Shown: in pieces, positions 5,551 to 62,145 of the stretch
How the letters are laid out: each line of letters opens with the position of its first letter
Position numbering within the stretch: position 1 is the first letter of the stretch
DNA from: an uncultured bacterium
Lineage (GTDB): Bacteria > CAYUVA01
Direction: 5' to 3'
DNA: 62,145 nucleotides
Assembly (NCBI GenBank): GCA_964448115.1
Contig: CAYUVA010000023.1
Location: forward strand, 1 to 62,145
The notes under the pieces: model-generated
The model's input: the letters and a program-made list of their open reading frames with translations, nothing else
What the model was told of the DNA's origin: nothing
The model's database searches: none
Translations under genes and position numbers: made by a program

Positions 5551-7698
5551 TTATATACTCCAGTACATAGCGGAGAGTCGTCTCTTTACATCGAGGTCCC
5601 AGGTCGCTTCTTCCCAGTTTACCAGCTTCTGCTCGCTTAGGCGCTCCAGGTTCAATTTAGCTCCTGTGAAATCTGCGCCCTTGATATCAGCATTGTTCAG
5701 GTTGACATTCTGAAGGTCAGCCTCCAGGAAGTCGGCTCCTTTAAGATCAGCGCCATGAAAGCTAGCACCGAACAGGTTGCTCCCCCTAAAACTACAATTT
5801 CTTGCCACTGCCATATTAAAGATTATTCCCGATAGTTGGCAGCGGCTCATGTCGGCATCCTTGAGGTTGACGCCACTTAGGTTGCTTTGTTTGATCTGAG
5901 CACCCCAGAGATCGCAACCGGTTAGGTCGGCATTTTCCAGGTTGCAGCTATCTATTATGCACTCACGCAGTCTGCTGTTGGACAAATCGACCCTGCCCAA
6001 TAACGCACGCTCGAAGATGGTTTGATGGAAGGAACACTCGGTGAATGCGGAAAAACCGAGATGGCATTTTCTGAAGGTTGCCTTATCGAACTTGGTATTT
6101 TTTACAGTTGCTCGTCGTATATCGCAACCGATGAACTTGCTATCGATAAAATCGGCATTGTTGATCAAGCTATTCTTGAAGTCGCACTCCCTGAAATCCC
6201 CTCCCCTTGATGTTGTATTGGTCATCTGAGCTCGCTTGAAGTCGCACTTGCGGGCTAAAGCCTCGCTGAAATCGCAGTAGCTCAAGATCGCCTCGAAGAA
6301 CCCGCATTCGAGCAATCTGGTAGCAATAAGGTCGGAGCGGATGAGATCGCACTGGATGAAAAGGACGCGTATCAGGTCGGCGATGCTCAGCGATGCCTCG
6401 CGCAACGAGCTTCCCTTAAAGTTAATGTTATTGAATCTAACCCTCTCGAACTTGGCTCTATCCAGGTTTATTTGATTCAAATCAAGATCCTTAAGGACGA
6501 TTCCCTCAAGATATTCTCCACTTTTAACCATCTTGATTAGCTTTGGCTTAACTTTATCCACGGATTTGGAGATATCCGGATCGTGCCAGAAACAGAGTTT
6601 CTGTTTTGAGTTGTCGTCCTTAGGCTCCTGGCAGGTGGGATGGATAGCTTCCTCGCCGACGAACTGGTACTCGCAGGTGATCCTTTTTACTGGCTTGTCC
6701 AGCTCAATATCGACTATCTGCGTTCTTTCAGCCTGCTCCTGTTGGGGGATAGGTAGGTCATCCTTTGCTATCATTACGGTTCTAAGTTCAAAGGAACCGC
6801 TTTCCCTTTTGCGCTCCTGTCTTCTTTTCATTATGGCGCTGGAGAGCTTATAGACATCCCTGAAGTCGCGGGCGAATTCCTCAATACTCTGGTATCGTTT
6901 ATCCGGGTCTTTTGCCATTGCCTTTTCGAGCACAAAGTCAAGCCCTTTAGGAAGCTCATGGTTCATATTGGAGGCTCTTGGCGGATTTTTTTGCAGTATG
7001 GCGGTCAGTATCGTATAAATAGAATCTCCATCAAAGGGCGCCTCGCCGGTTAAAAGCTCATAATTCATCACTCCTGTTGCATAAATATCAACTCGGTGAT
7101 CTACCTTCTGTCCTTTTACCTGCTCGGGAGCCATATATTTAGGAGTTCCGACCAGCAATCCTGTGGAGGTGAGATCTTTCTCAGCTCCAAGCACAAACTT
7201 TGCTAGCCCAAAATCCATAACCTTGATGAGTCCATTGGGGAGCATCATTATGTTCGCCGGCTTGATGTCGCGGTGGATGACTCCCTGGTCGTGAGCCATT
7301 TGAAGCGCACTGCACACCGCATCGTTTATCGGCACCATCTCCTTATATGGTATAGCTCCTTTTTGCTGATATATCTCCAGCAGGGTCTGCCCTTGTACGA
7401 ACTCCATCACTATGTAGGCGTAATCTTCTCCATCCAGCCCGTAATCGTATATGGTAACGATATTGGGATGGGTCATGCGGGCTGGGGTTTGGGCTTCCCT
7501 GAGCACGCGGCGAGACATCGACTCCTTGTCCTCGGCATCGGTGCTTACCAGGTGGACAACCTTGATTGCGACCGTTCTATCCAGGCGCTCATCCTTGCCG
7601 AGGTAAACCACGCCCATATTCCCCTTGCCGAGAAGCTTCCCTATCACGAAGCGTTTTTCCAGGGTGTATCCAGGTTTGAATTTATCGTAAGGATTCAT
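5551..7698 (-). CDS. Hanks-type Ser/Thr protein kinase fused to a C-terminal pentapeptide-repeat domain
   Basis: LGKGNMGVVY, VAIK, HRDIKPAN, DFGLAK, GTPKYMAPE; C-terminal ~300 aa of A(D/N)Lxx/ADFxx pentapeptides; no TM segment seen. Confidence 0.93.
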   Translation of the reverse strand: MNPYDKFKPGYTLEKRFVIGKLLGKGNMGVVYLGKDERLDRTVAIKVVHLVSTDAEDKESMSRRVLREAQTPARMTHPNIVTIYDYGLDGEDYAYIVMEFVQGQTLLEIYQQKGAIPYKEMVPINDAVCSALQMAHDQGVIHRDIKPANIMMLPNGLIKVMDFGLAKFVLGAEKDLTSTGLLVGTPKYMAPEQVKGQKVDHRVDIYATGVMNYELLTGEAPFDGDSIYTILTAILQKNPPRASNMNHELPKGLDFVLEKAMAKDPDKRYQSIEEFARDFRDVYKLSSAIMKRRQERKRESGSFELRTVMIAKDDLPIPQQEQAERTQIVDIELDKPVKRITCEYQFVGEEAIHPTCQEPKDDNSKQKLCFWHDPDISKSVDKVKPKLIKMVKSGEYLEGIVLKDLDLNQINLDRAKFERVRFNNINFKGSSLREASLSIADLIRVLFIQCDLIRSDLIATRLLECGFFEAILSYCDFSEALARKCDFKRAQMTNTTSRGGDFRECDFKNSLINNADFIDSKFIGCDIRRATVKNTKFDKATFRKCHLGFSAFTECSFHQTIFERALLGRVDLSNSRLRECIIDSCNLENADLTGCDLWGAQIKQSNLSGVNLKDADMSRCQLSGIIFNMAVARNCSFRGSNLFGASFHGADLKGADFLEADLQNVNLNNADIKGADFTGAKLNLERLSEQKLVNWEEATWDLDVKRRLSAMYWSI

Positions 7699-16576: not shown

Positions 16577-17875
16577 TTACTTATTGTCCAGGATCGTATT
16601 TTTTAGATTTGTCCTATCGAAGATAGCGCCCTCGATGTTTGCGCCGGACAGATTTGCATTCTCAAGGTTGGCGCCGGTGAAATCAGCCCCGCTCAAGACC
16701 GCACCCTCCAGATTAGACTCTGAGAGATCGGAGCCAGAGAAATCGGTATTGCTGTAATTTGCTCCCATAAGGTCGCAGCCAATCATAATGCACTCGGTAA
16801 TCTCGCTGTTCATTCCCTCGGCGAAAGTGAGTCTTACATCCTTCATTATCGATCCCTTGAAGAGGACGCTATTCATCTGGGAGCCTGTAAAATCAGAGTG
16901 TTCCAGGTTAGAGTTTATGAACTGTGCCTTGTTGGTTATTGCTCCGGTGAAATTGCAGCCAGTGAAATTGCAGTTATCGAATATCGCTGAGTCCAGATTA
17001 GACCCCTCGAAGCTGGTCAGCTTGAAGTTTGCTCCGCTCGCCTTTGCATCCTTTAATTTACTGTTACGGATTGTCGCCTTGGGTAGGTTGGCATTAGAGA
17101 AATCTACACCTACTAATGTAGCATTGACAAATAAGGCTTTTTCGAGGTCCGCATTGAAGAACTTTGCCCCGATCAGGTTAGCCTTGGTGAAATCAACCTC
17201 GTGCAGATGTGCTTCCTTCAAGCTAGCCCCCATTGCCAGGACACCTCTGAATCTCGCCTTACCTGCCTCGATCCCATCGAGTATGGCGCCAATCAACCTG
17301 CTGTTATCCAGGGCGCATCGCTCCATAACACAAAGCTCCATGTGCGCTGATGTGAGGTTGCATTCCTTGAAGATCGCTCGCTTCATAGTAGCTCCGCGCA
17401 GCTTGCATGCCTCCATATCGACATCATCGAACCTGCCCTCATTCAAGTCGGAAAGCACAAGCAACACCCCCCGCAGGTTGGAGCTTCTAACCTTTACGCT
17501 ATGCAGGTCAGCCTCGCTAACATCAATGTCCTCGATCTGAGCCTTATCGAATATGGCACCAACTAGAGATGATCTCTTCAAGGAGGTCTTTCTGAATTTG
17601 GTGTGGGTAAAATCAGCTCCATTCATATTCGCTGATTCCAGGAACACCTCATCGAGGGTGGTAAAAGAGAACTTGCTGTATTCGAGATTTGCCCCCGAGA
17701 AATTGACCCGCTTGAGCTTGGCGCCGGTGAAAATCGCACCCACCAGGTCAGAGCGTGAGAAGTTGATGCTCGATATGATAAGCCCCATGAAATCGGCGCC
17801 AGTAAGATCAAGCTCGGAGAAATCGTCCCGCCTCTTGAGCTTCTCGACGATCTCGCTGTTTGAAAATACGCTCAT
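16577..17875 (-). CDS. Pentapeptide-repeat protein (almost entirely repeats)
   Basis: Continuous (A/S)(D/N)(L/F)xx pentapeptides over ~410 aa. Confidence 0.92.
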   Translation of the reverse strand: MSVFSNSEIVEKLKRRDDFSELDLTGADFMGLIISSINFSRSDLVGAIFTGAKLKRVNFSGANLEYSKFSFTTLDEVFLESANMNGADFTHTKFRKTSLKRSSLVGAIFDKAQIEDIDVSEADLHSVKVRSSNLRGVLLVLSDLNEGRFDDVDMEACKLRGATMKRAIFKECNLTSAHMELCVMERCALDNSRLIGAILDGIEAGKARFRGVLAMGASLKEAHLHEVDFTKANLIGAKFFNADLEKALFVNATLVGVDFSNANLPKATIRNSKLKDAKASGANFKLTSFEGSNLDSAIFDNCNFTGCNFTGAITNKAQFINSNLEHSDFTGSQMNSVLFKGSIMKDVRLTFAEGMNSEITECIMIGCDLMGANYSNTDFSGSDLSESNLEGAVLSGADFTGANLENANLSGANIEGAIFDRTNLKNTILDNK

Positions 17876-30292: not shown

Positions 30293-31716
30293 TGGAAGGC
30301 ATTGCTATCAAGGCTGACAATATCTGGAAGATCTACCGCAAGCACCGTCGCATCAATAAGTACGAGACCCTCAAGGGCATGTTGCTGGGCAGGATGTCCT
30401 ACAAGCGTTCGCCGGATGAATATATTCATGCACTCAAGCATGTCTCATTCAAGGTAAGAAAAGGTGAATCGGTCGCCATCATCGGGTCTAATGGCTCCGG
30501 TAAAAGCACCCTGCTCAAGATAGTGGCTAGCATCTGCCTTCCAAGCGCCGGCATCGTCGAGGTCAACGGAAAGGTATCAGCATTGATCGAGCTTGGCGCT
30601 GGATTCCACCCGGAGATAAGCGGCCGGGAGAACATCTTCATAAACGGCATTATGCTGGGGCTAACCAAGGCTCAAGTAAAGGAAAGATTCGATAGTATCG
30701 TCAATTTTGCAGAGCTTTGGGAGTCCATCGATAACCCGGTAAAGACTTACTCGTCGGGGATGTACATGCGACTTGGCTTCAGCGTGGCAATCCATGTCGA
30801 TCCCCAGATACTGCTCATCGACGAGGTACTGGCTGTGGGGGACGAGGCTTTTGTGCACAAGTGTATTGACAAGATCTATCAATTCAGGCGACAAGGCAAG
30901 ACGATACTGCTGGTTACACACGGACTGGAGGCGGTAAAGCGGCTCTGCGACCGAGCTATCTGGCTGGAGAAGGGAACTATCCAGATCGATGCAGAGCCGA
31001 ATAAGGTGATCGGACACTACCTGCATCATGTGCACCAGAAGGAGGAGGAGCGCTACGCCTCTCTGCAAGCAAAATCGCAGCAGATCATCGACTCTGGCAT
31101 CGAATACAAGCCATCGGAAAGGAAAAAGGATACATCCGAACAGCAAGCCCAAGAGCAGACCGAGGAGAAAGTAAAGGAGCCTAAGTGCATCTTAGATGAT
31201 GATGGAAATGTCCGCATCGAGGGCTTGGAGGTTGAACGGTGGGGTTCAAGGGAGATCGAGCTTTGCGAGATAAGGATGCTTGATGATAAGGACAAGCAGA
31301 GGAATATCTATAACTCTGGCGATAAAATCACCATAGAGATGCATTTCCTTGCCCACAAGCAGATCAATGACCCGGTCTTTGGAGTGGGCATCTATACAGC
31401 ATCCGGAACTTGGTGCTATGGCACCAACACCGCCATTGAAGGATACAAGATCGCCACTATCAAAAAAGGAAGCGGGGTTATAAAGTTCGTCATCGAGCGC
31501 CTCGACCTGGTAGAAGGCTCATACTACCTGGACTTCGCGGTGCACTCACGGGACGGCTTCCCCTATGACTATCAAAGCAAGCTACATGTGATCTCGGTGC
31601 GCAGCGAAATAAAGGACTTCGGGGTATTCAGACCACCGCATAGATGGACATTTCCAAAGGGACTGCGTGTCGAGTCCAAGGGAAACCATAAGGCAAAGAA
31701 TAATGAATCGGACTAA
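30292..31716 (+). CDS. wzt: Polysaccharide ABC exporter ATPase with a C-terminal Wzt carbohydrate-binding domain
   Basis: GSNGSGKST, YSSGMYMRLGFS, IDEVLAVGDEAF; C-terminal RWGS...DPVFGVGI...GSYYLDFAVH. Confidence 0.93.
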   Translation: MEGIAIKADNIWKIYRKHRRINKYETLKGMLLGRMSYKRSPDEYIHALKHVSFKVRKGESVAIIGSNGSGKSTLLKIVASICLPSAGIVEVNGKVSALIELGAGFHPEISGRENIFINGIMLGLTKAQVKERFDSIVNFAELWESIDNPVKTYSSGMYMRLGFSVAIHVDPQILLIDEVLAVGDEAFVHKCIDKIYQFRRQGKTILLVTHGLEAVKRLCDRAIWLEKGTIQIDAEPNKVIGHYLHHVHQKEEERYASLQAKSQQIIDSGIEYKPSERKKDTSEQQAQEQTEEKVKEPKCILDDDGNVRIEGLEVERWGSREIELCEIRMLDDKDKQRNIYNSGDKITIEMHFLAHKQINDPVFGVGIYTASGTWCYGTNTAIEGYKIATIKKGSGVIKFVIERLDLVEGSYYLDFAVHSRDGFPYDYQSKLHVISVRSEIKDFGVFRPPHRWTFPKGLRVESKGNHKAKNNESD

Positions 31717-33587
31717 TCCTGCGTCCCATACTTGCCCATCAGGTCGAGGTCGAAGTTCTGTAGCCACTGATAGGCATTCCCTTTTAAGATAAGGTTATAC
31801 CTTCCAGGTTTAGCTCGAATAGGACGCAATATGCGGTCTATCTCACCAGGCTGGGCGCTCTGCATGAAATACGGATAATATGACTTGCCCCAGGTGAAAA
31901 GATAGGCACATCTTAGATAATCGAAAATTACTATATTCTTGAACACTCGCTCCGAGTTATTGTCGAACTTGACAAAGAATTCGCTGTTTTCGATAAAATC
32001 AGCAGCATGATGTAACATGGGACTCTTGGGATCCTCCAAAGTACGCTCATAGCCAGAAAAGGCAACCATTGGAGCCCCTTTGCCCGAAGTCAAGCCGGTA
32101 TTTGCCGCAAGCAGGCTCTCCAAAAAGACCTCTCGTTTTGCCAGGACACTATATGCGCCCCATAATATAAGTATCTTGTAAATTAGATTGCTATAGAATC
32201 CGGGATGGAGCATCTCGATCTGCCTTTTACTAAGCTCCCTGGTCATTTTCTTGGCTTTGACATAGACCTCGGTCAGCATCTCACGATTCTCTTTATTGAA
32301 GCTGAAGCTATGCAGCCTGATCAACTGGTACATGATCCCCTCATCGGGATCGGTACAGTCCTTCAGCTCCAGCGTCGTATGATCGATCAGTCTCGCTCCA
32401 AGCCCAGCGAAATGGAGCGTTCGGGAGATTATCTTCTCTATTATCTCCAGGTTCTTCTTTATCTCGAAGGGGATGAACCTCGCCTCCATGAAGATGTTAT
32501 CCACCGCCTCCTTGAGGGTATCGATGATATATAGCTTCCTTCCTGTTTTGAGATATTCCATGAAGCGCTTTTGAATCTCCAGAGGGCTGGTCTGCTTTGG
32601 AGGCGGGGAGATCTTCCCTGGTTCTTGTTTTGAAGGTCTCTGCAAAGGCTCCGATTCCTCGACCAAATCCTCCTCTGGCATCTGTTTTGTCTCAGTGTTT
32701 ATCGGCTTTCTATTCGGCGTTGAGATCCTCACCGTAGCCATGGCTTCCTGGGTTGGCGGTATCTTGCCCAATTGCTTGACTGCAAAGCTATGCTGTAGCT
32801 GTTCGAAAAGCTGGCCAGCATCATTAAAGCGTTGCTCTGGACTCTTGCTCAAGCAACGAAGGATAACCTTCTCCAGGCGCGGAGTTATCATTGGATTGAG
32901 CGCTCTGGGTGATACTGGGGCAGTGTTCAGATGCTTGTGAATGATATCGTAAACCTCCCCTTTGAAAGGGACGGTGCCGGTGAACATCTCATATAGCATC
33001 ACTCCGATGGAATAAATATCGGCTCGAAAATCGATATTCGGCGAACCCTTGATCTGCTCTGGAGAGATATAATATGGCGTTCCCAGGGCGGTGCCGGTCT
33101 GGGTAAGTTTGGCTCCGCTTTTTAGTTTAGCCAAGCCGAAGTCCATCAAATAGATATGCCCGAAGCGATCAACCATGATGTTTGATGGCTTGAGATCCCG
33201 ATGCACAATGCCCATGGAATGGATATAAGAGACAGCGCCAATAAATGGCTTCAGGAATGTTAAGCCCCTCTTCAGGCTCATCTTACCCTCGCGGTTCATG
33301 ATCTCATCGAGGTTCTCTCCATCGATGTACTTCATAATCATGTAGGTCAAATCTTCCTCGAAGCCGATCCAATAAATATCGATGATGTTAGGATGATTGA
33401 GCCTGGCTAGCGTGCCCGCCTCGTGGATAAAGCGATCTCTTAGGTCGGGATCGATCAGAACCTTGATAGCTATCTCTTTCTCGATACCGAGGATTATCCC
33501 CTTATAAACCTGGCACATGCCACCTTTGCCGATCGGTTGCAGGATCTTGTATTTCCCCGCCAGAACCTTGTCTTTAAGATCGATCAT
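31713..33587 (-). CDS. Hanks-type Ser/Thr kinase with an uncharacterised C-terminal domain
   Basis: IGKGGMCQVY, IAIK, HRDLKPSN, DFGLAK, GTPYYISPEQ; Pro/Gln-rich linker, then a ~285-aa unknown region. Confidence 0.92.
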   Translation of the reverse strand: MIDLKDKVLAGKYKILQPIGKGGMCQVYKGIILGIEKEIAIKVLIDPDLRDRFIHEAGTLARLNHPNIIDIYWIGFEEDLTYMIMKYIDGENLDEIMNREGKMSLKRGLTFLKPFIGAVSYIHSMGIVHRDLKPSNIMVDRFGHIYLMDFGLAKLKSGAKLTQTGTALGTPYYISPEQIKGSPNIDFRADIYSIGVMLYEMFTGTVPFKGEVYDIIHKHLNTAPVSPRALNPMITPRLEKVILRCLSKSPEQRFNDAGQLFEQLQHSFAVKQLGKIPPTQEAMATVRISTPNRKPINTETKQMPEEDLVEESEPLQRPSKQEPGKISPPPKQTSPLEIQKRFMEYLKTGRKLYIIDTLKEAVDNIFMEARFIPFEIKKNLEIIEKIISRTLHFAGLGARLIDHTTLELKDCTDPDEGIMYQLIRLHSFSFNKENREMLTEVYVKAKKMTRELSKRQIEMLHPGFYSNLIYKILILWGAYSVLAKREVFLESLLAANTGLTSGKGAPMVAFSGYERTLEDPKSPMLHHAADFIENSEFFVKFDNNSERVFKNIVIFDYLRCAYLFTWGKSYYPYFMQSAQPGEIDRILRPIRAKPGRYNLILKGNAYQWLQNFDLDLMGKYGTQD

Positions 33588-50608: not shown

Positions 50609-50959
50609 TTACCTCGCATCTTTTTCTAGCTTTAATAGTATTTCTTGTATTTTAGGTCTTATCTCGGGAAGATTTATCGTTATAGCATCCCAGATCATAT
50701 TATCGTCGATACCCCAATAAAAATGAATGATTCTATCCCTCATACCAGCTATTTTTTTCCAGGGGATGTCTTGGTAATTGTCCTTAAATTCTTTGGGAAT
50801 TTTCTTAATTGCCTCTCCAATGATTTCTAAATTGAAATATATGGATTGCTTAGTCTTTAGATCATTTTTAAACTCTTCCTTATCCATTCCTTTGATAAAT
50901 TCCTGTACAGTGTCAATAGCCAAAAGTATATCCTTAAAGTAGATTTTAATATTTCTCAC
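50609..50959 (-). CDS. HEPN (DUF86/HepT-like) toxin
   Basis: LEIIGEAIKKI...IPWKKIAGMRDRIIHFYW (Rx4HxY); visibly AT-rich. Confidence 0.93.
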   Translation of the reverse strand: MRNIKIYFKDILLAIDTVQEFIKGMDKEEFKNDLKTKQSIYFNLEIIGEAIKKIPKEFKDNYQDIPWKKIAGMRDRIIHFYWGIDDNMIWDAITINLPEIRPKIQEILLKLEKDAR

Positions 50960-51255
50960 AAGTATAATGCCTCGCTAAGGATATTTTCTTTAAGCTCTTC
51001 TCGTATATTCTTTTGAGGAATTACATCGACCTTGCAGCCGAAGTGTTCCTCCAGGTCCGCGGCTATTCCGCAAAGATCGAACAAGCTAGCGCCTTGGTGG
51101 ATCTCTATCAGCACATCGAGGTCGCTCTGCTTGCTTTGCTCTCCACGCACAACCGAACCGAAGACGCCGAGTATGCTTATCTTGTATTTTTCCTTAGCGT
51201 CCTTGTTGAACTCCCGCAGCTCATCAAGGATCTGTTCTAAAGACATCCTCAGCAT
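50956..51255 (-). CDS. Minimal nucleotidyltransferase (MNT/MntA-like) antitoxin
   Basis: GVFGSVVRGEQSKQSDLDVL (GS-x10-DxD)...LEEHFGCKVDV; overlaps the HEPN gene. Confidence 0.93.
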   Translation of the reverse strand: MLRMSLEQILDELREFNKDAKEKYKISILGVFGSVVRGEQSKQSDLDVLIEIHQGASLFDLCGIAADLEEHFGCKVDVIPQKNIREELKENILSEALYL

Positions 51256-51264
51256 CGATTTGTT

Positions 51265-51290
51265 CTTTGTGCCTTTGTGGTTAAAAAGCC
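51265..51290 (-). repeat. Dispersed repeat copy between the giant gene and MNT-HEPN
   Basis: Minus strand GGCTTTTTAACCACAAAGGCACAAAG. Confidence 0.6.
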
Positions 51291-51296
51291 TCAAGC

Positions 51297-54200
51297 CTAT
51301 TGCACAATTGTCAGGTATGGCCAGATGAGGCTCGAGTTGCCGCTATGATCCACCGCCTCTAGCTCGAGCAGGTATGTGCCGGCTGTGCCCTCCAAGCCCC
51401 CAGCGGGCAGATCGATCTTCAAGCCGAACACGCAGTCGCCAGCGCCGAAATCATTGTTCATCCCATTATCTAATAGCCTCAAGCCAGTATCCATCTGCCC
51501 GAACAGAACTCGAACCTCCTTGACATCGCTACAGCCATCCGCATCGGTGATATAAGCCAGCAATGTGAATGTGCCGCCGGTAAGCTCATATATCTCGGTG
51601 AAGTAATAACCACCCAGGGCGACTGCCGGGATGCCGGAGCCTTTGGAATAGCCATGAATCAACATCCTGCTAAGTAACCGCCAGTCGTCAATGGTATCCT
51701 CGGCGGGCAGAGAATAAGTCGTGTAAGCCTCCTCTTCGCCACTTAGGATGCTGAGGTATGGCCAAAGGGTGCTTTGGTCGTTAGCCTCGTTGAATGCTTT
51801 AAGCTCGAGCAGATACTGTCCAGGGGGCGCGCCAGAGCCTATGTCGGCATCGAAGGTAAATATCCCGACCACCGGATCAGTCCTGGTCAAGGTGATGCCA
51901 GTCGGAGCGCCGCTAAAGTACATATCGACCTTGTCGATGCGGTATCCCTTCAGATCAGATGCCCAGGCGAGCATGGACAGGTGTCCCCCAGTGGAGGTGC
52001 TAATCTGGGTGTTCATATAACCAGCTAGCAGAATAAATGGCTTGCCGAAGGGCGTACTAGTCGGAGTCTCGGTCGGAGTCGGCGATCGGGTAATGGTCGA
52101 TGTCGGGGTGGCGGTCTCGGTCTTTGTAGGAGTCGAGGTGGGCACTGTGGGGGTGCTAGACGGAGTAAAGGTCGCCGTGGATGTAGGCACGATGGTCGGG
52201 GTTGAGGTGCTGGTCGGGGTTGCCGACGGTAGGCTGGTCGGGGTCCTGGTCGGGGTGGCGGTCGGCAATCCAGTCGGGGTGTTGGTCGGAGTCGGTCGAT
52301 AGATTATCATCGCATCCGGCACAGCCGGCGGAGATTCCTCGTTGCCTACATTATCGTAGCCTAGGGAGTAAAACTCGTAGGTGCCATAATTGCTGTGATC
52401 ATCAACATAAAATGTTACCGGGCTTACCGTGTAGATGCCTGGATAGGCGACCCAATACGAGGCTGCGTAGTTGTAGTAAACCTTGATATGGCTGAAGCCG
52501 GAGCCTTCCTCGCTCCACTGGAAGGGAAGCTCGATCACCGGTTCATAAGTATATTCGGGCAGGCTCGATATACTGGTATCGGGCGCGCTGGCATCCTGAG
52601 TGGAGCTTACGATATTGGACCAATCACTTCGAGCATCCGAGGCGTTGCGAGCCTTGACCCTGGCATAATATGTGCCTCCGTCGCTTAGTCCGCAGAATTG
52701 ATGATAGACCTGGGCAATCCAGCCACTGTCATCGAAAATGACCGTGAAGTTTGAATCAAAGGCGGTCTGCACAAGATACTCTACCGCTCCGCTTTCGCTC
52801 TCATCGCTCCAGTAGAATGTATTGCAGATACCCTTAGTGAATGGAGGTTCATCTTGCATCACCGGTATGTTCGGTGCGGTCGGGGTGCTGGTGGGGGTCA
52901 TGCTAGGGGTGGTGGTAAGAGTTGCGGTCGGAGTGGTCGATGGTGTTGATGATGGCGTCGCCGTAGCGGTTGGAGTCATGGTTGGAGTCATGGTGGCAGT
53001 GGGGGTCTGAGTCGCTGTCTGCGATGGGGTTAGGGTTGGTGTCATGCTCGGTGTCGGCGTGCTAGTTGGGATGACGGTCGGTGAGGCTGTTGCGGTGCAT
53101 GTCGGCGTCCTGGTCGGTGTCGGTGTCCTGGTAGGGGACCCGGTGCAGGTCGAGGTCGGCAGCATGGTGGCGGTTCCTGTCGGGGTGAGCGTTGCGGTTG
53201 ATGTTGGCAAAGGAGTATGCGTCGATGTCGGCGAGTAGGTCGGCGTGTTGCTCGGAGATGCGGTTGCGGTCGTGGTCGGGCTGAAGGTCGGCGTATTGGT
53301 AGCCGTTGGAGTACGAGTTACCGTCGGCGTATTGGTGGGCACAATGGTAGGTGTATTGGTAGGCGTGCGGCTCGGCTTTATAGTAGGAGTGGAGGTCGGC
53401 GTGGTGGTTGGCGTATCGGTCGGGGTGTGGGTTGCGGTCGGCGTGGCAGTCAGCTCCAGCACCTGCACATCATAATAAACATCATGCCCCCAGGAACCAT
53501 CCTGCGACTCAACCAACAGGTAGTAAGTGCCACTGATGGGGGCGAAATGGCTCACCTTGGAGGATTTATCTCCAGCCATAACATCGTTGTTATCAGCAAC
53601 TAAGACCATGCCTGGATTATAAAGATAAAGATGCGTGTCTGTAATCGGGCTTAAGCCGGAGGTCCAGACATCATATACCTTTCTTGATATCCCATCGAAG
53701 TAGTGCCAATCCTTATCCGGCTCGGCGCCTATTGGTGGGCAGAAGTAATGATGCGCCAAGGTGCCATCGGTCGATATCCATTTAGCAGTCTGGAATGTAT
53801 TATCCAATTCCCAGGTATCATCGTTGGAGCAAGGAGTACCAGTCGGTGTTACCGTTGGTGTAAAAGTAGGTGTAGTAGTCGGGGTGTTGGTCGGGGTATC
53901 GGTCCATGTCGATGTCGGTGTTTGGGTTATTGTCGGTGTTTTGGTGCTCGAAGGCGTCATGGATGGGGTTGAGGTCTCCGTAGCGGTTGGCGTTGCTGAT
54001 GGAGTGCTGCTCGGGGTGGTAGTCGGCGTGCTCGATGGTGCTGCGGTCGCTGTGCTGGTTGGTGTGTTGGTTGCGGTTGGGGTTTTGGTTATTGTCATGG
54101 TCGGTGTCAGGCTAGGGGTAAGGGTGGGGCTGCTGGTTGCAATGTCGGTCGGGGTAGAGCTAGGTGTCAAGGTCGGTGTGTTGGTGGTTGTTGGGGTATT

Positions 54201-56210
54201 AGTGGCAGTTGGGGTGCTGGTCGGAGACCATTGTACCACTGTAAAGTTATAGTAAGCTGTATGCCCCCACCTCAAGTTCATCGAGGTTATCATCACATGA
54301 TAGAAATCGGTGCTGCTGAAGGTGTACTCCAGATATGATGCGGCAGGCTCACCAGGGATCTCACCGTTGTTATTGTTGTTATAGCCAAGCGGGGTTGCCT
54401 CCAGGTAAGGTGTGGGAGCGCCAGGTATATGGTACAAGAAAATTGCGGTATCGACCTGCGGACCCAGCTTATCTGTCCACATCGCGTAGGTGTAGTCCGC
54501 ATAGCCCAAAAACTTATGCCAGTCTTCCTCCCTTGCCTCGCAGAGGTAATGGTGTTTTGGATCCGGTTGATTCTCGAAGAATATGTTGCTCGCCTCCCAG
54601 TAGAAATCATCCGGCTCCCATTCATCATCGAAATAACAAGGTGTCGGGGTAGGTGTGCTGGTCGGGGTAGTAGTCGGTGTGCTGGTCGAAGTCGGCGTGT
54701 TGGTCGGGGTTACGCTCGGCCAGTTGGTCGGTGTGCTGGTCGGCGTGTTGGTTGCGGTGCCGGTTGGTGTGCCGGTCGGGGTATCGGTGCTGGTGCCGGT
54801 CGGCGTTGAGCTTGGCAAGGCTGTAGATGTGTGAGTCGGCGTATTGGTCTTGGTCGGGGTGCCGGTCGGTATCATGGTCAGGGTATGGGTGGGAGTCGTG
54901 GTCGGTGTGCTGGTCTCGGTGTGGGTCGGGGTACTGGTCGGGGTTTGTGTATCCGTGTTGGTCGGCGTTAAGGTCGGAGTATGGGTAGGTGTACGGGTCG
55001 AGGTAGGTGAATAGGTTGGAGTCCTGGTTGGAGTATCCGAGGGTGTCCTAGTTGGGGTACCGCTGGGGGTAAAAGTCGGGGTGTCTGTAAAGGTCGGGGT
55101 GCTGGTTGGACTATCAGTGGGAGAGGCGGTATTTGTGTTGGTTGGAGAACGGGTTGGTGTCCTGGTCGGCGTGTCGGTCGGTGTTGAGGTGGGGGTTTGG
55201 GAAGGCGTATCCGATGGGGTCGCTGTGGGAGTGCTGGTAGGCAATGCGGTAAATGTCGCTGTCATAGTTGGCGTATAGGTGGGGCTATTGGTCGGAGTCC
55301 TGGTCGGCGTGTTCGATGCTGTTGAGGTCGGCGTGCTGGTTGGACTCGAAGTAGGTAAACTGGTGGCTGTATCGGTCGGTGTGCTTGTCGGAGTGCTGGT
55401 AGGTGAATTTGTGGCAGTGTTGGTCGGTGAGTTGGTCGGGGTTGTGGTGGGGGTTGTAGTCGGCGTGCCAGTGATAAGTACACACTGTAAATCATAATAC
55501 GATTGCGGTCCCCAGTTGGTTTCTCCATTTTTCGCCCAAATCTTCAAATAATAAGTACCAGCCTCGACAAAACAATACTCCAATAGCGATGCCCTAAGCT
55601 CCACCAGTGGATATGCATCATCGTTCTGCGCCAGCCATAACAAAGGTGGATCGCCACCAACATACTTCCAATAGGTAAATATGGTATCGCTCTTCGGACC
55701 AAGATTGGATGACCATGACTTCCAAGTAGAGTGCTTATTTGCTTCGGTTACATTAATGAACAGCCAATCGTTGTCCGTGGAATGGCAGAAATAATGAAGC
55801 TCCACGCTTCCATCCGGATCCAGGTAGTTCATAACCCCGACCCAGTCATCATCATAACCGGTTGGGTATTCATAAACATCAACCGCATCACAGGGAGTCC
55901 AGCTTGCCGTGGGAGTCAGAGTTGGTGTATTTGTGGGTGTTGTAGTCGGTATAGTTGTATTCGTTGGAGTCGAACTTGGCAGTATGGTGGGATCTGTCTC
56001 CTTGGCGAGTGGAATGCTCCAACCGGTCCCATCCGGTCCCTTTGCTATCTCGGCATAGACCTTCTGCTCTACATCGCTGAAAATGAGATAACCGAAGACT
56101 ACAAGAGCTAACGAGAATGAAAGTGCATAGGCTAATAGTTTGGTTCCTACTGAATTGCCCTTATCATCAGCGAGCTTCATTAACTTACTCTTTCTGTATT
56201 CATCCAACAA
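51297..56210 (-). CDS. Giant surface protein: N-terminal TM/signal, 3 PPC-like beta domains, FN3-like and Ig-like domains, five Pro/Thr/Ser linkers, two C-terminal 'WPYL' domains
   Basis: 1637-aa ORF; repeated PC..D.(Y/W)E.D...HY.C...DW...DT...N(D/N)...S...YY...WG...YY domains; (T/S)PTxT runs; tandem C-terminal ...LLELxA...WPYL. Confidence 0.85.
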
Positions 56211-56279
56211 TAAACTATATCAGTATAGTACAAAAAGCAATCATCTTGTTAAGGTAGCTTTTATATATAACATTCATTC

Positions 56280-56618
56280 TCAGTTGCCGGAGTTTACTCG
56301 GTTGCTCAAGAATTCCAAGTATGACAGGGCGTTTTTTCGCTCCTCCTCGCTAAGTTGCCTGAATTTTTTCAAGAACTCCAGGATCTCCCTGTCCAAAAGG
56401 AAATCCTGCACACCGATATCCTCGCTGAGTCCTAGCAGGTAATCAGTGCTCACATTCAGGGTCTGTGCCAGGGTTGCTAGTGCCTTTGATGTCGGCGTTC
56501 TCACCCCGCTCTCGAACTGGGAGATGGCTGCCGGGGTAACCTTCAGCGCCCTGGCAAGCTGAGCCTGACTCATCTTCTGCCTCATTCTCAGCTTTCTGAT
56601 CCTTTTGCCGATATCCAT
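56280..56618 (-). CDS. XRE-family HTH transcriptional regulator
   Basis: IGKRIRKLR...MSQAQLARAL.VTPAAISQFESG.RTP...LA.TLNVSTDYLLG; GGAGG RBS before ATG 56618. Confidence 0.95.
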   Translation of the reverse strand: MDIGKRIRKLRMRQKMSQAQLARALKVTPAAISQFESGVRTPTSKALATLAQTLNVSTDYLLGLSEDIGVQDFLLDREILEFLKKFRQLSEEERKNALSYLEFLSNRVNSGN

Positions 56619-56826
56619 AGCTAACACCTCCATGGAATTTTATTTAGGGTTATTGCTCCTTTGACAGATCTATGCTGCCTTCTTTTTCACATTTTGTAAT
56701 AAAAACTCGCCGCCAGGTAGTTATCGCATCTGTCCAGGGGGGAACGCTTTCTTTCTCGTTTAATACCGTTGTCAATTACATCCTCTCCTACAATCGGGAT
56801 CCGCTTCAATCAACTCTTACAATAGT

Positions 56827-56855
56827 AATATATAACCTTTTGTTAGTTTTGTCAA
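56827..56855 (-). promoter_or_regulatory. Promoter of the XRE gene, with an operator-like site in the spacer
   Basis: Minus strand TTGACA-N17-TATATT; TAAC-N5-GTTA at 56833-56845. Confidence 0.65.
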
Positions 56856-56897
56856 GACCAAACTTACATTAAATACAAGTAAACACTGAACATGCTA

Positions 56898-56956
56898 TTG
56901 ACAGGAAGTTAACAAAGTGTTATATTAAAGGTAGAGGGGTTAACATAAAGTTAACC
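56898..56956 (+). promoter_or_regulatory. Promoter of the prkA operon, with two operator-like sites
   Basis: TTGACA(56898)-N17-TATATT(56921); GTTAAC-N5-GTTATA at 56908-56924; perfect IR GGTTAAC-N5-GTTAACC at 56938-56956. Confidence 0.7.
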
Positions 56957-56980
56957 TTAGAAACAGGGAGGTGAGCAGCT

Positions 56981-59020
<2,040 letters not shown>

Positions 59021-59056
59021 GGATGCTTTGAATCATGAAGCAAGGAGGTGATCTCT

Positions 59057-60160
59057 ATGACAATGAAGATAGAACAAGACCATCAGCGCTTCCGCCAGAT
59101 AGTAAAGGGTCAGATCAAGAAGGAGTTGGCAAAGTATATCACCAAGTCGGAGCTTATCGGCAAGCAGGGCAAGAACCTGGTCAGCATTCCCATCCCCTTC
59201 ATAGAGATCCCTCATTTTAGATACGGACACAAACAGACCGGCGGCGTTGGACAGGGCAAGGGCGAGCCGGGAGATCCACTCGCTAAGGGTGATGAAGAGC
59301 AAGGCATTGGCAAGGCTGGCGATCTGCCCGGAGAGCATATCTTGGAGGTGGAGCTGACCATCGACGAGCTGGCAGCCATCCTCGGCGAGACACTGGAGCT
59401 GCCCAACATCCACCCCAAGGGCAAGAAGAACATCACCACCATCAAGTACAAGTACAACACCATCCGCACCACCGGTCCCGAATCCCTGCGCCACTTCAAG
59501 CGAACCTACAAGGAAGCGCTCAAGCGACAGATCATGACCGGCGCCTATTTTTACGAGAGACCAAGGGTCACCCCGGTCAAGGAGGACAAACGCTATCGCT
59601 CATTCAGCGAGCTTCCTATTCCGGAGGCGAGCGCGGTAATATTCTACATAATGGATGTCAGCGGCTCTATGGGGGATGAGCAGAAGGAGCTGGTGCGCAT
59701 CGAGAGCTTCTGGATCGATACCTGGCTTCGCTCCCAGTACAAGAACATCGAGATCCGCTACCTAGTGCACGATGCAGCCGCCAAGGAGGTTGATCGCGAC
59801 ACCTTCTATCACCTTCGCGAATCCGGCGGAACGCGCATAAGCAGCGCTTACGAGCTTTGCTACAAGATCATAGACCATTATTACCCTGTTTCGCAGTGGA
59901 ATATCTACGCCTTCCAGTTCAGCGACGGGGACAACTGGGGTGATGACAACAAAAGCTGCACCAATCTATTGACTCAATACTTGCTCCCCTTACTTAACAT
60001 GCTCGGCTACGGACAGGTGAAGAGCCACTTTGGCAGCGGCGATTTCATCAAGCTCCTCGAACCTTTGGCTGAGAAGCATACAAACCTGTTGCTGAGCAAG
60101 ATTGACTCCAAGGAACAGATTATCGACAGCATCAAGACATTTCTCTCCAAGGGGCTGTAG
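59057..60160 (+). CDS. yeaH: YeaH/YhbH (DUF444) vWA-domain protein
   Basis: [38 protein letters not shown]; follows prkA. Confidence 0.94.
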
Positions 60161-60340
60161 CTATGGGCATGACTACATATACAGCTCGATACCTCCTTTC
60201 AAGCCATGATGCGGGTGGAGCGCCACACCTCCTCCCTGAAGACTATTTCAACACCGCTTCACCCGCATCGAACAAAGGTTGTGTCTCTGATAATAAGTGG
60301 TGGTGGCTCCTTATGCTCTACCTGAGAAGAATTCTTTGCT

Positions 60341-60404
60341 CTCTGTGCCATTGTGGCTTTATGGTAAAAAAACCTCCAACCCTCAACCCTCAAGACTCAA
60401 GCCT
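60341..60404. repeat. Degenerate dispersed repeat plus tandem heptamers
   Basis: CTCTGTGCCATTGTGGCTTTATGGTAAAA, then CAACCCT CAACCCT CAAGACT CAAGCCT (60377-60404). Confidence 0.5.
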
Positions 60405-60421
60405 AACAAGGGGGTGATGAG

Positions 60422-61924
60422 ATGACACTTAGCATGGAATTGGAAAAGGCAAGGAAAAAAATAGAGCGTTATGCAAATGATTATGGACTGGATTTCTATC
60501 CTGTCATCTTCGAGGTTATCACCTACAAACAGATGAACGCCATAGCCAGCTACTCTGGATTCCCCACCCGCTATCCGCACTGGCGCTTCGGCATGGAATA
60601 CGAGCGGATGCATAAGGGTTATGCCTACGGGCTGCACAAGATATACGAGATGGTGATCAACAACAATCCCTGCTATGCGTACCTGCTTGAGAGCAATAAC
60701 CTGGTGGATCAGAAGCTGGTCATGGCGCATGTCTATGCCCACTGCGACTTTTTCAAGAACAACCTTTACTTCAGCCATACAAACAGGAAGATGCTCGACC
60801 AGATGGCTAACCATGGAGCGCAGATACGGCGCTATATCCATCGCCTGGGTAGGGATAAGGTGGAACACTTCATCGACAAGGCTCTCTCCATAGAGAATCT
60901 CATCGATATAATGTCCCCCTTTATACAGCGAGGATACGATAAAAGGGCAAGGTACGATGAAAAAGACGATGATGAAGAGAAGTCCGAAGCGATGCGCTTC
61001 GATGCCAAGGATTATATGGATCGCTTCATAAATCCTAAAAAGCCTAGGGTTACAACTAAGCAAGGGGCTGATGATGAAGATAATAGCCCTGATCCACCAT
61101 CTCGATTCCCTTCCGAACCTGCCAGGGATGTCCTGCTATTTCTTATAAACTATGCGCCGCTAGCCAACTGGGAGCGACATATCCTATCCATCATCCGCGA
61201 GGAGAGCTATTACTTTGCGCCGCAAGGGCAGACCAAGATAATGAACGAGGGGTGGGCGACCTTCTGGCACTCCAAGATAATGACCGAACGAGCCTTGACC
61301 GATGCTGAGATAATCGACTATGCGGATCATCACTCCGGCACCGTAGCCACCGCGCCTGGAAGGCTGAATCCCTATAAATTGGGGCTTGAGCTGTTTCGGG
61401 ATATCGAGGATCGCTGGAACAAGGGGAAATTCGGGCTTGATTACGAACGCTGTGAGGATATGAAGACCAAGAAAGCCTGGGATAAAGGGCTGGGGCTTGG
61501 CATCAGTAAGATCTTCGAGGTGAGAAGGATACACAACGATGTTACCTTTCTCGATGAGTTCCTCACCGAGGAGTTCATAAGGGATCAGATGCTTTTCACT
61601 TACAAATATGACAGCAAGCAGAATCTATGGGTGATAGACTCGAGAGAATTCGCCAAAGTGAAGAAGAAGCTGCTTTTCAGCCTTACCAATGCAGGGCGTC
61701 CTGAGATAGTGGTCGAGGATGGAAACTACCACAACCGCGGCGAGCTTTACCTGCGCCATATAAACGCCGAGTATAGCCTTGATATACCAAAGGCGATGGA
61801 CACGCTGCGCAATGTCGAGTTCTTCTGGCGCCGCCCCGTGCACCTGGAGACCCTGGTCGATGGCAACACGACCCTGTTTAGCTGTAACAAAGGTGAGATA
61901 GAGGAGCAAAGTATCCAGACATAA
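60422..61924 (+). CDS. spoVR: SpoVR/YcgB family protein
   Basis: GFPTRYPHWRFG, IYEMVINNNPCYAYL, AHVYAHCDFFKNN, YFAPQGQTKIMNEGWATFWH, NPYKLG. Confidence 0.96.
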   Translation: MTLSMELEKARKKIERYANDYGLDFYPVIFEVITYKQMNAIASYSGFPTRYPHWRFGMEYERMHKGYAYGLHKIYEMVINNNPCYAYLLESNNLVDQKLVMAHVYAHCDFFKNNLYFSHTNRKMLDQMANHGAQIRRYIHRLGRDKVEHFIDKALSIENLIDIMSPFIQRGYDKRARYDEKDDDEEKSEAMRFDAKDYMDRFINPKKPRVTTKQGADDEDNSPDPPSRFPSEPARDVLLFLINYAPLANWERHILSIIREESYYFAPQGQTKIMNEGWATFWHSKIMTERALTDAEIIDYADHHSGTVATAPGRLNPYKLGLELFRDIEDRWNKGKFGLDYERCEDMKTKKAWDKGLGLGISKIFEVRRIHNDVTFLDEFLTEEFIRDQMLFTYKYDSKQNLWVIDSREFAKVKKKLLFSLTNAGRPEIVVEDGNYHNRGELYLRHINAEYSLDIPKAMDTLRNVEFFWRRPVHLETLVDGNTTLFSCNKGEIEEQSIQT

Positions 61925-62044
61925 GTCTGAGCGAATAATCATACTCCATACCGAGTTCCTCACTGGCTTGCGCCAGGCTCACAAGTAATGACATCTTCAC
62001 CCTCTCCATAACCCTAGTTGCCATAAACGACATAGATAACTCTA

Positions 62045-62145
62045 CTACTCTAGGATGTTCAGGTATGGCCAGAGAAGGCTATCTCTGCCACAAATATCAT
62101 GAGCCACTAGCTCGAAAAGAAAAACCCCCGGCAGCACAGTAAAAT
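62045..62145 (-). CDS. 3' end of a gene ending in the 'WPYL' domain; partial at right edge, not in the ORF track
   Basis: Manual translation from 62143: FTVLPGVFLFELVAHDICGRDSLLWPYLNILE* (TAG TAG), matching the C-terminus of the 1637-aa protein. Confidence 0.8.
   Translation of the reverse strand, partial: FTVLPGVFLFELVAHDICGRDSLLWPYLNILE

Follow-up and report, generated by a model that had tools for sequence, protein, structure and literature searches.

We analyzed a window of 62,145 nucleotides that represents an entire contig (CAYUVA010000023.1, here G000:C23) of an uncultured bacterium, whose genome assembly GCA_964448115.1 (G000) comprises 3.98 Mb in 86 contigs and is 94.45% complete; positions without a G000:C prefix follow window numbering. 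The element under study is a domain, hereafter the tail domain, that occurs twice at the end of a giant exported protein translated from 51297..56210 on the minus strand (1637 aa as counted from a TTG codon, the ATG at 56178-56180 being the likelier start). The initial annotation, made from the DNA letters, had proposed that this protein ends in two tandem homologous units; both are present, with the residue strings that it quoted, and they are 34% identical in our alignment A1. Copy 1 (51744..52046, minus strand; profile match 4e-30) lacks the acidic DDG..GD..AGD loop, and its strands correspond to residues 4-101 of the didomain model m890215308e06. It is followed by an inter-copy linker of about 39 aa (51639..51743, minus strand) with a conserved Trp and a predicted helix at model residues 115-132 (pLDDT, the predicted local distance difference test, 60-77). 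Copy 2 (51300..51638, minus strand; profile match 2e-29) carries the optional acidic loop at 51396..51479 and ends in WPYLTIVQ immediately before the stop codon (51297-51299). A second gene, cut by the right edge of the contig, had been proposed to share this ending. Its C-terminal end lies at 62048..62145 on the minus strand (stop 62045-62047), where the frame 62048-62143(-) reads FTVLPGVFLFELVAHDICGRDSLLWPYLNILE followed by the stop and terminates in LLWPYLNILE. This 32-aa fragment was matched by the genome-trained tail profile with an E-value of 1.2e-4, and in both genes exactly four residues follow WPYL, as had been noticed.

Upstream of the tandem tail, the giant protein consists of linkers rich in Pro and Thr (PT-rich), three PPC-like modules and an FN3-like region, and a Pfam scan of the complete 1637-aa sequence returned no family. 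A hydrophobic N-terminal segment at 56079..56138 (minus strand), read from the sequence and located by a hydrophobicity scan, would serve as a signal peptide or signal anchor. Module 3 (53331..53831, minus strand) matched PPC (PF04151) weakly, at 25.2 bits (E 3e-5), slightly short of the cut-off of 25.9. Module 2 (54111..54650, minus strand) and module 1 (55476..55928, minus strand) have the pattern D.W..F...Y...G.YY and no Pfam match, and the resemblance of module 1 to the other two was judged by eye only. The region at 52176..52823 (minus strand), again free of Pfam matches, combines an FN3-like stretch with a second beta-rich stretch. The FN3-like motif recurs upstream of the tail in many paralogues, and such paralogues match fn3 or Pur_ac_phosph_N.

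To determine the size of the family we searched all stop-to-stop frames of at least 30 aa in the genome (n=70,724). A profile built from the two window copies alone retrieved 147 open reading frames (ORFs) with 180 copies; the similarity lies far beyond chance. The search converged after two more rounds at 166 ORFs and 202 copies of a domain of about 105 aa; these counts include contig-end fragments and a few short, probably broken frames. One copy per ORF was found in 132 cases, two copies in 33 and four copies in one. By a rough gene call (3029 genes of at least 70 aa), tail carriers make up 161 genes (5.3%), and their share rises with gene length, from 138 of 788 genes of at least 500 aa to 57 of 118 genes of at least 1000 aa and 21 of 34 genes of at least 1500 aa. 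Altogether, carrier ORFs occupy 11.5% of the bases of the genome. The expectation that such tails would be numerous is thus borne out.

The tail module is mostly, but not obligatorily, terminal. The distance between the domain and the stop codon is at most three residues in 140 of the 166 ORFs (84%), which agrees with the predicted C-terminal position, at most ten residues in 146, and larger in 20. Among the 146 terminal tails, 91 have the motif WP[YFW], with the Trp most often eight residues from the end (49 tails), or else seven (27) or nine (8), and the remaining 55 have variants such as FPYL, WPAL and WPNL. By regular expression, the acidic loop is present in 81 of 198 copies. First and second copies are mildly distinct (cross-profile scores of 87-97 bits versus self scores of 106-118 bits), and a division into separate subtypes was dropped since the cross-profile scores were only mildly lower. 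In the 20 non-terminal carriers, the domain stands at the N-terminus in six and internally in 14. The N-terminal cases have it straight after the signal peptide, for example in a GH31 protein (G000:C4:101031-103145) and in a 1346-aa FG-GAP/sulfatase-modifying protein, while internal copies are followed by a PT linker and further domains. These 20 carriers are more easily explained by a docking module than by an export signal that has to be C-terminal.

Most carriers have a signal-like N-terminus. A strongly hydrophobic N-terminal segment near a possible start was found in 148 of 164 carriers, as compared with 564 of 1105 other ORFs of at least 400 aa, under a lenient rule that took the best of all candidate starts; the carrier N-termini that were printed resemble classical signal peptides. 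The passengers are very diverse. A Pfam scan of 40 carriers, drawn at random from the 166, assigned at least one family to 26 and left 14 without any. The sampled passengers include Peptidase_C25 with its propeptide (2), purple acid phosphatase, PLD, PETase/dienelactone-hydrolase-like enzymes (2), a prenyltransferase-type toroid, FGE-sulfatase, LVIVD, arrays of Big_7 and Big_13, and many beta-helix, FG-GAP, PQQ-type and NHL repeats or propellers. Additional carriers contain M14 carboxypeptidase, BNR_2 and GH31 glycosidase domains, and an S8 subtilase carries the tail in a related metagenome-assembled genome (MAG). At least five of the six C25 peptidases of the genome are carriers. No Pfam family covered the tail itself in the 40 sampled carriers, except for sub-threshold matches of 25-35 residues to the immunoglobulin (Ig) families Big_13, DUF4625 and Big_3_4 in copy 1 of locus L017. 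Signal-like N-termini and diverse passengers were both anticipated by the initial annotation, and the situations that it had named as contrary to its proposal (a characterised family, only one or two paralogues, or mostly internal or cytoplasmic occurrences) were not found. Its reading of a lineage-specific C-terminal module on exported proteins is therefore supported; the function of that module we infer.

The passengers are joined to the tail by a recurrent type of spacer. In 93 of 159 carriers, Pro, Thr and Ser make up half or more of the 30 residues that precede the domain, and many others have an FN3-like motif there. A PT-rich linker is present in 124 of 161 carriers; conversely, the 154 PT-linker genes of G000 include 124 carriers. 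The linkers between the two copies in the 33 two-copy proteins span 24-72 aa and in many cases have a Trp followed by an amphipathic stretch. No conserved cleavage motif was apparent ahead of the domain, a region taken up by PT linkers or FN3. A lipoprotein anchor was considered and rejected, as a lipobox-like motif occurs in 11 of 161 carriers versus 99 of 1612 other genes, without enrichment.

We also grouped the genes of G000 into rough BLAST families and scanned one representative per family (e.g. C37:28799-34483, C1:26942-29998 and C28:49448-55642). The largest families comprise 143 TPR-rich proteins (one scanned member with a Wzy_C O-antigen-ligase domain), 74 sensor kinases/response regulators, 71 glycosyltransferases, 48 and 42 radical-SAM proteins, and 28 PMT_2/DUF2298 membrane glycosyltransferase-like proteins. 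The expansion of PMT_2 beside 154 PT-linker proteins suggests putative O-glycosylation of the PT linkers.

The phylogenetic distribution of the tail is narrow. G000 is the only genome of its GTDB phylum among 199,900 species genomes. In 40 relatives, all of them kin at the level of the same domain only, real matches were confined to one genome (G022, with 25), and four others had one or two marginal matches each (E 2e-6 to 1e-3). Within the phylum of G022, 11 of 14 genomes matched at E<=1e-8 with 4 to 49 matches each, and three genomes from three other families had no tail match. In a wider sample of 300 other genomes, where 15 candidates were scored per genome so that copy counts are floors, strong matches (E<=1e-25) appeared in four genomes, two in this second phylum and two in a third, in agreement with the proposed phylum restriction. 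All seven genomes of the third phylum passed E<=1e-20; each has 16-24 matches, most of which form tandem pairs. Related loci were found in MAGs recorded as candidate division CSSED10-310 and Candidatus Coatesbacteria; the former is a rare, uncultured, Gram-negative-type phylum, and a paper on it makes no mention of the tail domain (PMC8248873). Thus, a compact domain family that is unmatched in the searched libraries marks most large exported proteins of G000 and is confined to three small uncultured phyla.

Among 1.84 billion representative public proteins, the profile matched 1549 at E<=1e-3, 695 at E<=1e-10 and 201 at E<=1e-30. Positions were counted in the best 150 matches, which are biased towards two-copy proteins because they were ranked by total score. 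Apart from the 25 of these that come from G000 itself, 89 of the other 125 end within three residues of the C-terminus, and 32 have more than ten residues after the domain. Three public proteins (P0037, P0076 and P0118; 1907-4692 aa) have 8-13 tandem partial copies each, which cover profile positions of about 17-97 and lack the first and last strands. Since these edge strands are missing, the partial copies point to descent from ordinary Ig-like repeats, and the three proteins are probably ordinary Ig-repeat relatives of the tail domain.

The tail also occurs almost by itself. A protein of 186 aa in G000 (G000:C4:99847-100407(+), equal to L041:9847-10407) combines a single tail with a signal peptide and a short, helix-like conserved stretch (..AYIASI..PF.KLAQQFIW); proteins of this type measure 170-264 aa, and among the 11 positive genomes of the second phylum, eight have one of them as their top match. 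In 5.8 billion clusters we found 12 homologues of similar size, including the protein itself and a fragment of the giant protein of the window, and none has a functional name. Its neighbours (TPR, KH, a protein of no assigned function, and PMT_2 with TPR) are kept within the second phylum and not in G000, so synteny was dropped as a lead. This small tail-only protein may be a core part of the system that reads the tail.

Concerning the identity of the domain, Pfam and NCBIfam scans of the giant protein and of its tail gave nothing over threshold, and the best PDB sequence-profile match had an E-value of 1.4. Neither the literature searched nor the libraries (Pfam in its 2025 copy, NCBIfam 20.0 and PDB sequences) gave a description of the tail, in line with the remark in the initial annotation that it belongs to no named family. 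The AF2 model of copy 2 (m4037898b7bb2, from a 52-row alignment) is a beta-sandwich of seven to eight strands with a pLDDT of 95.3 and a predicted template-modelling score (pTM) of 0.87. For the entire 249-aa tandem tail (25-row alignment), the values were 90.7 and 0.88; in this didomain model WPYL.I forms a strand in each copy, and a pTM of 0.88 for two domains suggests that the tandem copies are predicted to keep a fixed mutual arrangement. Fold comparison, which the initial annotation had recommended, yielded only generic Ig/FN3 sandwich likeness. A Foldseek search of the PDB with the single domain had no match at E<=1e-3, and its best row was the dimerisation Ig domain of the sulfite dehydrogenase SorT (E 3.5e-3, TM score 0.44). 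The best row of a VIA search over 48,161 chains was the FN3 domain of chitinase A1 (Z 7.6, root-mean-square deviation (rmsd) 2.5 A, 81 residues aligned), in a Z range that is common. The VIA searches, a wide one and a second look, gave only generic Ig/FN3 rows, with no T9SS C-terminal domain, cohesin or lectin prominent, and the didomain model recovered only generic tandem Ig/FN3 proteins (TM score 0.2-0.3). Feature scores from the ESM Atlas were 0.94 for unnamed clusters and 0.83 for clusters of DUF4625 and Big_13, the latter being no more than a lead; the recognition value stayed below the mark of the tool.

Big_13 (PF19077) and DUF4625 (PF15418) also resemble the tail in sequence. They share with the tail the Y.L.V.A.D..GN motif of the last strands and lack its AGY first strand and WPYL last strand. 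Their weak matches reached 12.4 bits; on a paralogue the scores were 27.2 and 24.2 bits, and the small tail-only protein scored 21.9 bits. Each match spans about 25 residues, and none of the listed best stretches passed the E-value limit by itself. The dimerisation Ig domain of Mo-co oxidoreductases (PF03404; VIA Z 6.9, rmsd 3.0 A, 88 aligned) did not rank above other Ig/FN3 rows. A distant common origin of the tail within the Ig-like domains is likely.

Two tail domains are also predicted to pair. Homodimer predictions with two copies of alignment A1 gave ipSAE values of 0.74, 0.75 and 0.72 in three runs versus 0.00 in three controls; the runs share at least 87% of their contacts, with a partner pLDDT of at least 83. 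The mark that these values pass is passed by 20 of 30 solved homodimers and by 1 of 23 proteins whose solved structure is a single chain, a calibration that is approximate here as a custom alignment was used. In the numbering of the single-domain model, the predicted interface of copy 2 comprises residues 6-19, 24, 27, 29, 82, 85-91 and 105-113. It contains the first strand with its AGY motif and the WPYL last strand, the latter predicted to pair with the strand that precedes it in the other subunit. Conservation across 198 copies is higher in the 31 interface columns than in the remaining 74 (2.05 vs 1.49 bits; permutation p about 0.01), and the interface holds 11 of the 20 best-conserved columns, including W106, Y11, P107, G10, Y108, Ile6, Val111, T14 and L109. 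The fold is thus predicted to be an Ig-like sandwich, the most conserved edges of which form a symmetric pairing surface.

A sceptical interpretation of these results sees no sorting role in the tail. It would be a common structural or dimerising domain of the Ig-like type that renders exoenzymes dimeric or acts as their spacer, multiplied by domain shuffling in a lineage with many modular exoproteins. This reading would account for the generic fold with its best matches to the chitinase A1 FN3 and SorT dimerisation domains, for the sub-threshold Big_13/DUF4625 matches and the 8-13 partial internal copies in P0037, P0076 and P0118, and for the passing homodimer prediction. We consider it unlikely, since one does not expect a plain spacer or dimeriser to form the last domain of 84% of 166 unrelated proteins or to sit on 124 of 154 PT-linker proteins, nor does it fit with a well conserved small protein made of little else that is the best match in 8 of 11 positive second-phylum genomes.

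The acidic loop of copy 2 leads to another interpretation. The initial annotation had compared it with the choice-of-anchor X domain, and the resemblance is real (NF041940, 17.4 bits, E 0.0027), both having an L.DDG..D..AGD loop, but it stays below the curated cut-off of 25. The score falls to 15.8 bits with the full tail and 13.8 bits with the full protein, copy 1 has no match, and the 37 positions of NF041940 span only this optional loop and not the rest of the domain. A lectin-like anchor that binds an envelope glycan (LPS, i.e. lipopolysaccharide, O-antigen or exopolysaccharide), partly via a Ca-type loop, in the manner of surface-binding modules known from other bacteria, would gain avidity from tandem copies, and many envelope-glycan genes are available in G000, among them the families of 143 TPR-rich proteins, 71 glycosyltransferases and 28 PMT_2/DUF2298 proteins. 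A loop found in 81 of 198 copies cannot carry a shared function, however, and the most conserved residues lie on the edge strands rather than in the loop, while Pfam and NCBIfam scans of the tail matched no carbohydrate-binding family. Of the explanations considered here, a lectin-like anchor appears the least probable.

The closest functional parallel is the C-terminal domain (CTD) of cargo of the type IX secretion system (T9SS) in Bacteroidota (TIGR04183/PF18962). Like the tail, it is a terminal Ig-like sandwich of about 70-110 aa on diverse Sec-exported enzymes and adhesins, C25 peptidases included, and the predicted fold of the tail at the extreme C-terminus of Sec-exported cargo shares this trait. 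The last strands are conserved in both. The CTD of the gingipain RgpB is a seven-strand Ig-like sandwich that dimerises by a swap of its C-terminal strand, which was proposed to be part of recognition (PMC4804311); pairing via the C-terminal strand is thus solved for RgpB and predicted for the tail. The RgpB report also places an IgSF domain directly after the catalytic domain of RgpB (PMC4804311). At this same place, a conserved C25 peptidase of about 1030 aa in the second phylum has a partial tail copy (profile positions 2-102, without WPYL), for instance at G042:C40:29687-31138 and G022:C20:115354-116805, and also in L070 and L071.

The tail differs from the T9SS CTD in that it has no sequence match to it, and occurs also in N-terminal, internal and tandem positions; in addition, the known machinery was not found in G000. 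SprA (TIGR04189) had no match in G000 or in five other carrier genomes, whereas the same search, as a positive control, matched 38 of 121 genomes, 29 of them over the cut-off; about a third of the searched same-domain relatives of G000 have SprA. The best PorV (NF033710) score in G000 was 16.8 bits versus a cut-off of 250, and the best PorU (NF033707) score was 84.6 bits versus 420, which represents generic C25 likeness. The CTD model itself (TIGR04183, Por_Secre_tail) had no match among seven candidates scored in G000, and 14 control genomes were likewise negative, so that this search had no positive control.

These parallels underlie the main rival of a docking function, in which the tail is a true outer-membrane export signal akin to the T9SS CTD, with its last strands read by a translocon that is either new or the type II secretion system (T2SS), and possibly with cleavage and subsequent surface attachment of the cargo. 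Such a signal would explain why 140 of 166 tails end within three residues of the stop codon and why the last strand is the most conserved part, and it is consistent with a cargo that parallels that of T9SS (at least five of six C25 peptidases) and with the strand-swap dimer of the RgpB CTD (PMC4804311). The lack of SprA in all six carrier genomes, as opposed to its presence in 38 of the 121 searched, would fit a replacement system. G000 has six secretin genes (contigs C1, C6, C14, C15 and C40) and a complete T2SS cluster at G000:C40:4378-17167 with GspE, GspF, GspG, a GspH-like pseudopilin, PilM/N, GspM and GspD (N0 plus Secretin_N). A carrier gene lies 2.6 kb downstream of this cluster, an adjacency that means little alone because 161 carriers are scattered over the genome. 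On the other hand, the six N-terminal and 14 internal carriers, together with the second, internal copy in 33 carriers, speak against an export signal, and no conserved upstream cleavage motif was seen. No dedicated translocon or sortase-like gene was found either, with no search aimed at sortases. T2SS substrates are not known to share a tag. We regard an export signal as rather unlikely, yet as the strongest competitor of docking.

Several candidates for a partner were followed and set aside. G000 encodes nine outer-membrane proteins of the FadL/TodX family (G000:C22:40230-41573 and eight paralogues), and the carriers beside these genes include M14 peptidase, BNR_2, FG-GAP and beta-helix proteins. 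Five of the nine lie within two genes of a carrier (uncorrected p 0.012), two of these cases being a duplicated BNR_2 and FadL pair, and a FadL/TodX-like adaptor was not retained. C25 peptidase, taken as a marker of a PorU-like sortase, is present in all 14 second-phylum genomes, including the three without the tail, and in 15 of 41 searched genomes (G000 included); given its presence without the tail, there is no phylogenetic profile signal. One exosortase-family ORF exists in G000 (G000:C2:147941-148192). The layout of PEP-CTERM or LPXTG signals, in which a short C-terminal motif precedes a hydrophobic helix and a basic tail, is not observed, as the tails end in the WPYL.I strand and one to five mostly polar residues, without a terminal helix.

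Dockerins, which place exoenzymes in the surface assembly of the cellulosome by binding cohesins, offer the second functional parallel: they are small, mostly C-terminal, position-free and PT-linked to varied exoenzymes, and a comparable placement is proposed for the tail. The dockerin fold is a Ca-binding, EF-hand-like helix pair, whereas the tail is predicted to be a beta-sandwich. No Pfam match to dockerin (PF00404) or cohesin (PF00963) was found in the giant protein or its tail (E up to 10) or in the 40 sampled carriers (E up to 1e-3). A scaffold with repeated receptor modules, as in cellulosomes, was not found either, and the predicted pairing of tails is like-with-like. In summary, the tail is functionally similar to the T9SS CTD or the dockerin and is a member of neither, as the defining features that were tested were not found.

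We favor, at a probability of roughly 45%, an explanation in which the tail acts in docking or sorting, through beta-strand pairing between its two most conserved edges. According to this proposal, the tail would be a lineage-specific Ig-like module, joined via PT-rich or FN3-like spacers to unrelated passengers of Sec-exported proteins, which comprise peptidases, phosphatases, lipase- or esterase-like enzymes, glycosidases, and beta-helix and propeller adhesin-like parts. The pairing edges would be the first strand (..P.I..AGY.DT) and the last strand (WPYL.I). Tandem tails would use these edges to pair in cis, whereas a single tail would pair in trans, its partner being another tail or a receptor with a similar edge. 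Exported enzymes and adhesins would thereby be held together at the cell envelope or surface. We infer that the carriers are retained at the surface, what the tail would bind and how the carriers would cross the outer membrane; G000 has a complete T2SS. Docking is favored because of the N-terminal and internal positions of some copies, the frequent occurrence of a rigid pair and the conservation on the pairing surface; freedom of position combined with tandem copies is a typical feature of docking or anchoring modules.

Several points weigh against this explanation. The extreme C-terminal bias (84%) is not needed for docking and fits an export signal equally well. The pairing expresses the confidence of a model, and Ig-like domains often dimerise in predictions and crystals; the homodimer pass may reflect likeness to solved Ig dimers. 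No partner, receptor, translocon or processing enzyme was found in our searches, which were not aimed at sortase genes, and an all-against-all BLAST of the 3029 rough genes showed no family convincingly enriched within two genes on either side of the carriers.

The remaining genes of the window are consistent with a diderm bacterium, as they encode a bacterial L19, a BamD-like protein and an LPS heptosyltransferase. Directly downstream of the giant gene, at 50612-51294(-), lie genes for a HepT-like RNase toxin (116 aa, 42.2 bits) and an MntA-like antitoxin (112 aa, 48.3 bits), both scoring below the NCBIfam cut-off of 60. An XRE/RstR-like repressor is encoded at 56283-56633(-), and consecutive genes of the PrkA kinase, YhbH-like and SpoVR families at 56981-61921(+) form a conserved stress/sporulation-associated triad. 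Two Ser/Thr kinases (one fused to pentapeptide repeats) and a 432-aa pentapeptide-repeat protein are encoded on the minus strand at 5554-7698, 16580-17875 and 31716-33587. Within the giant gene, positions 52001-56000 have a GC skew of +0.26 to +0.31 and a GC content of 0.54-0.55; this rise is explained by hundreds of minus-strand Thr and Pro codons and does not mark a foreign island.

Terminal sorting tags such as the T9SS CTD, PEP-CTERM, LPXTG and dockerin have repeatedly revealed the machines that read them. It is conceivable, if on balance unlikely, that three rare uncultured phyla possess their own pathway of surface display or outer-membrane export, the tag of which is an Ig-like tail read via pairing of its AGY and WPYL edges. 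If so, the pathway would handle about 5% of the genes of G000 and about half of its giant proteins, and would represent an independent invention of the logic of the T9SS CTD with a translocon or receptor of its own. The concrete question that the tail raises is which machinery reads it. The tail defines the secretome of these organisms, and its profile can be used to annotate about 1500 unnamed public proteins.

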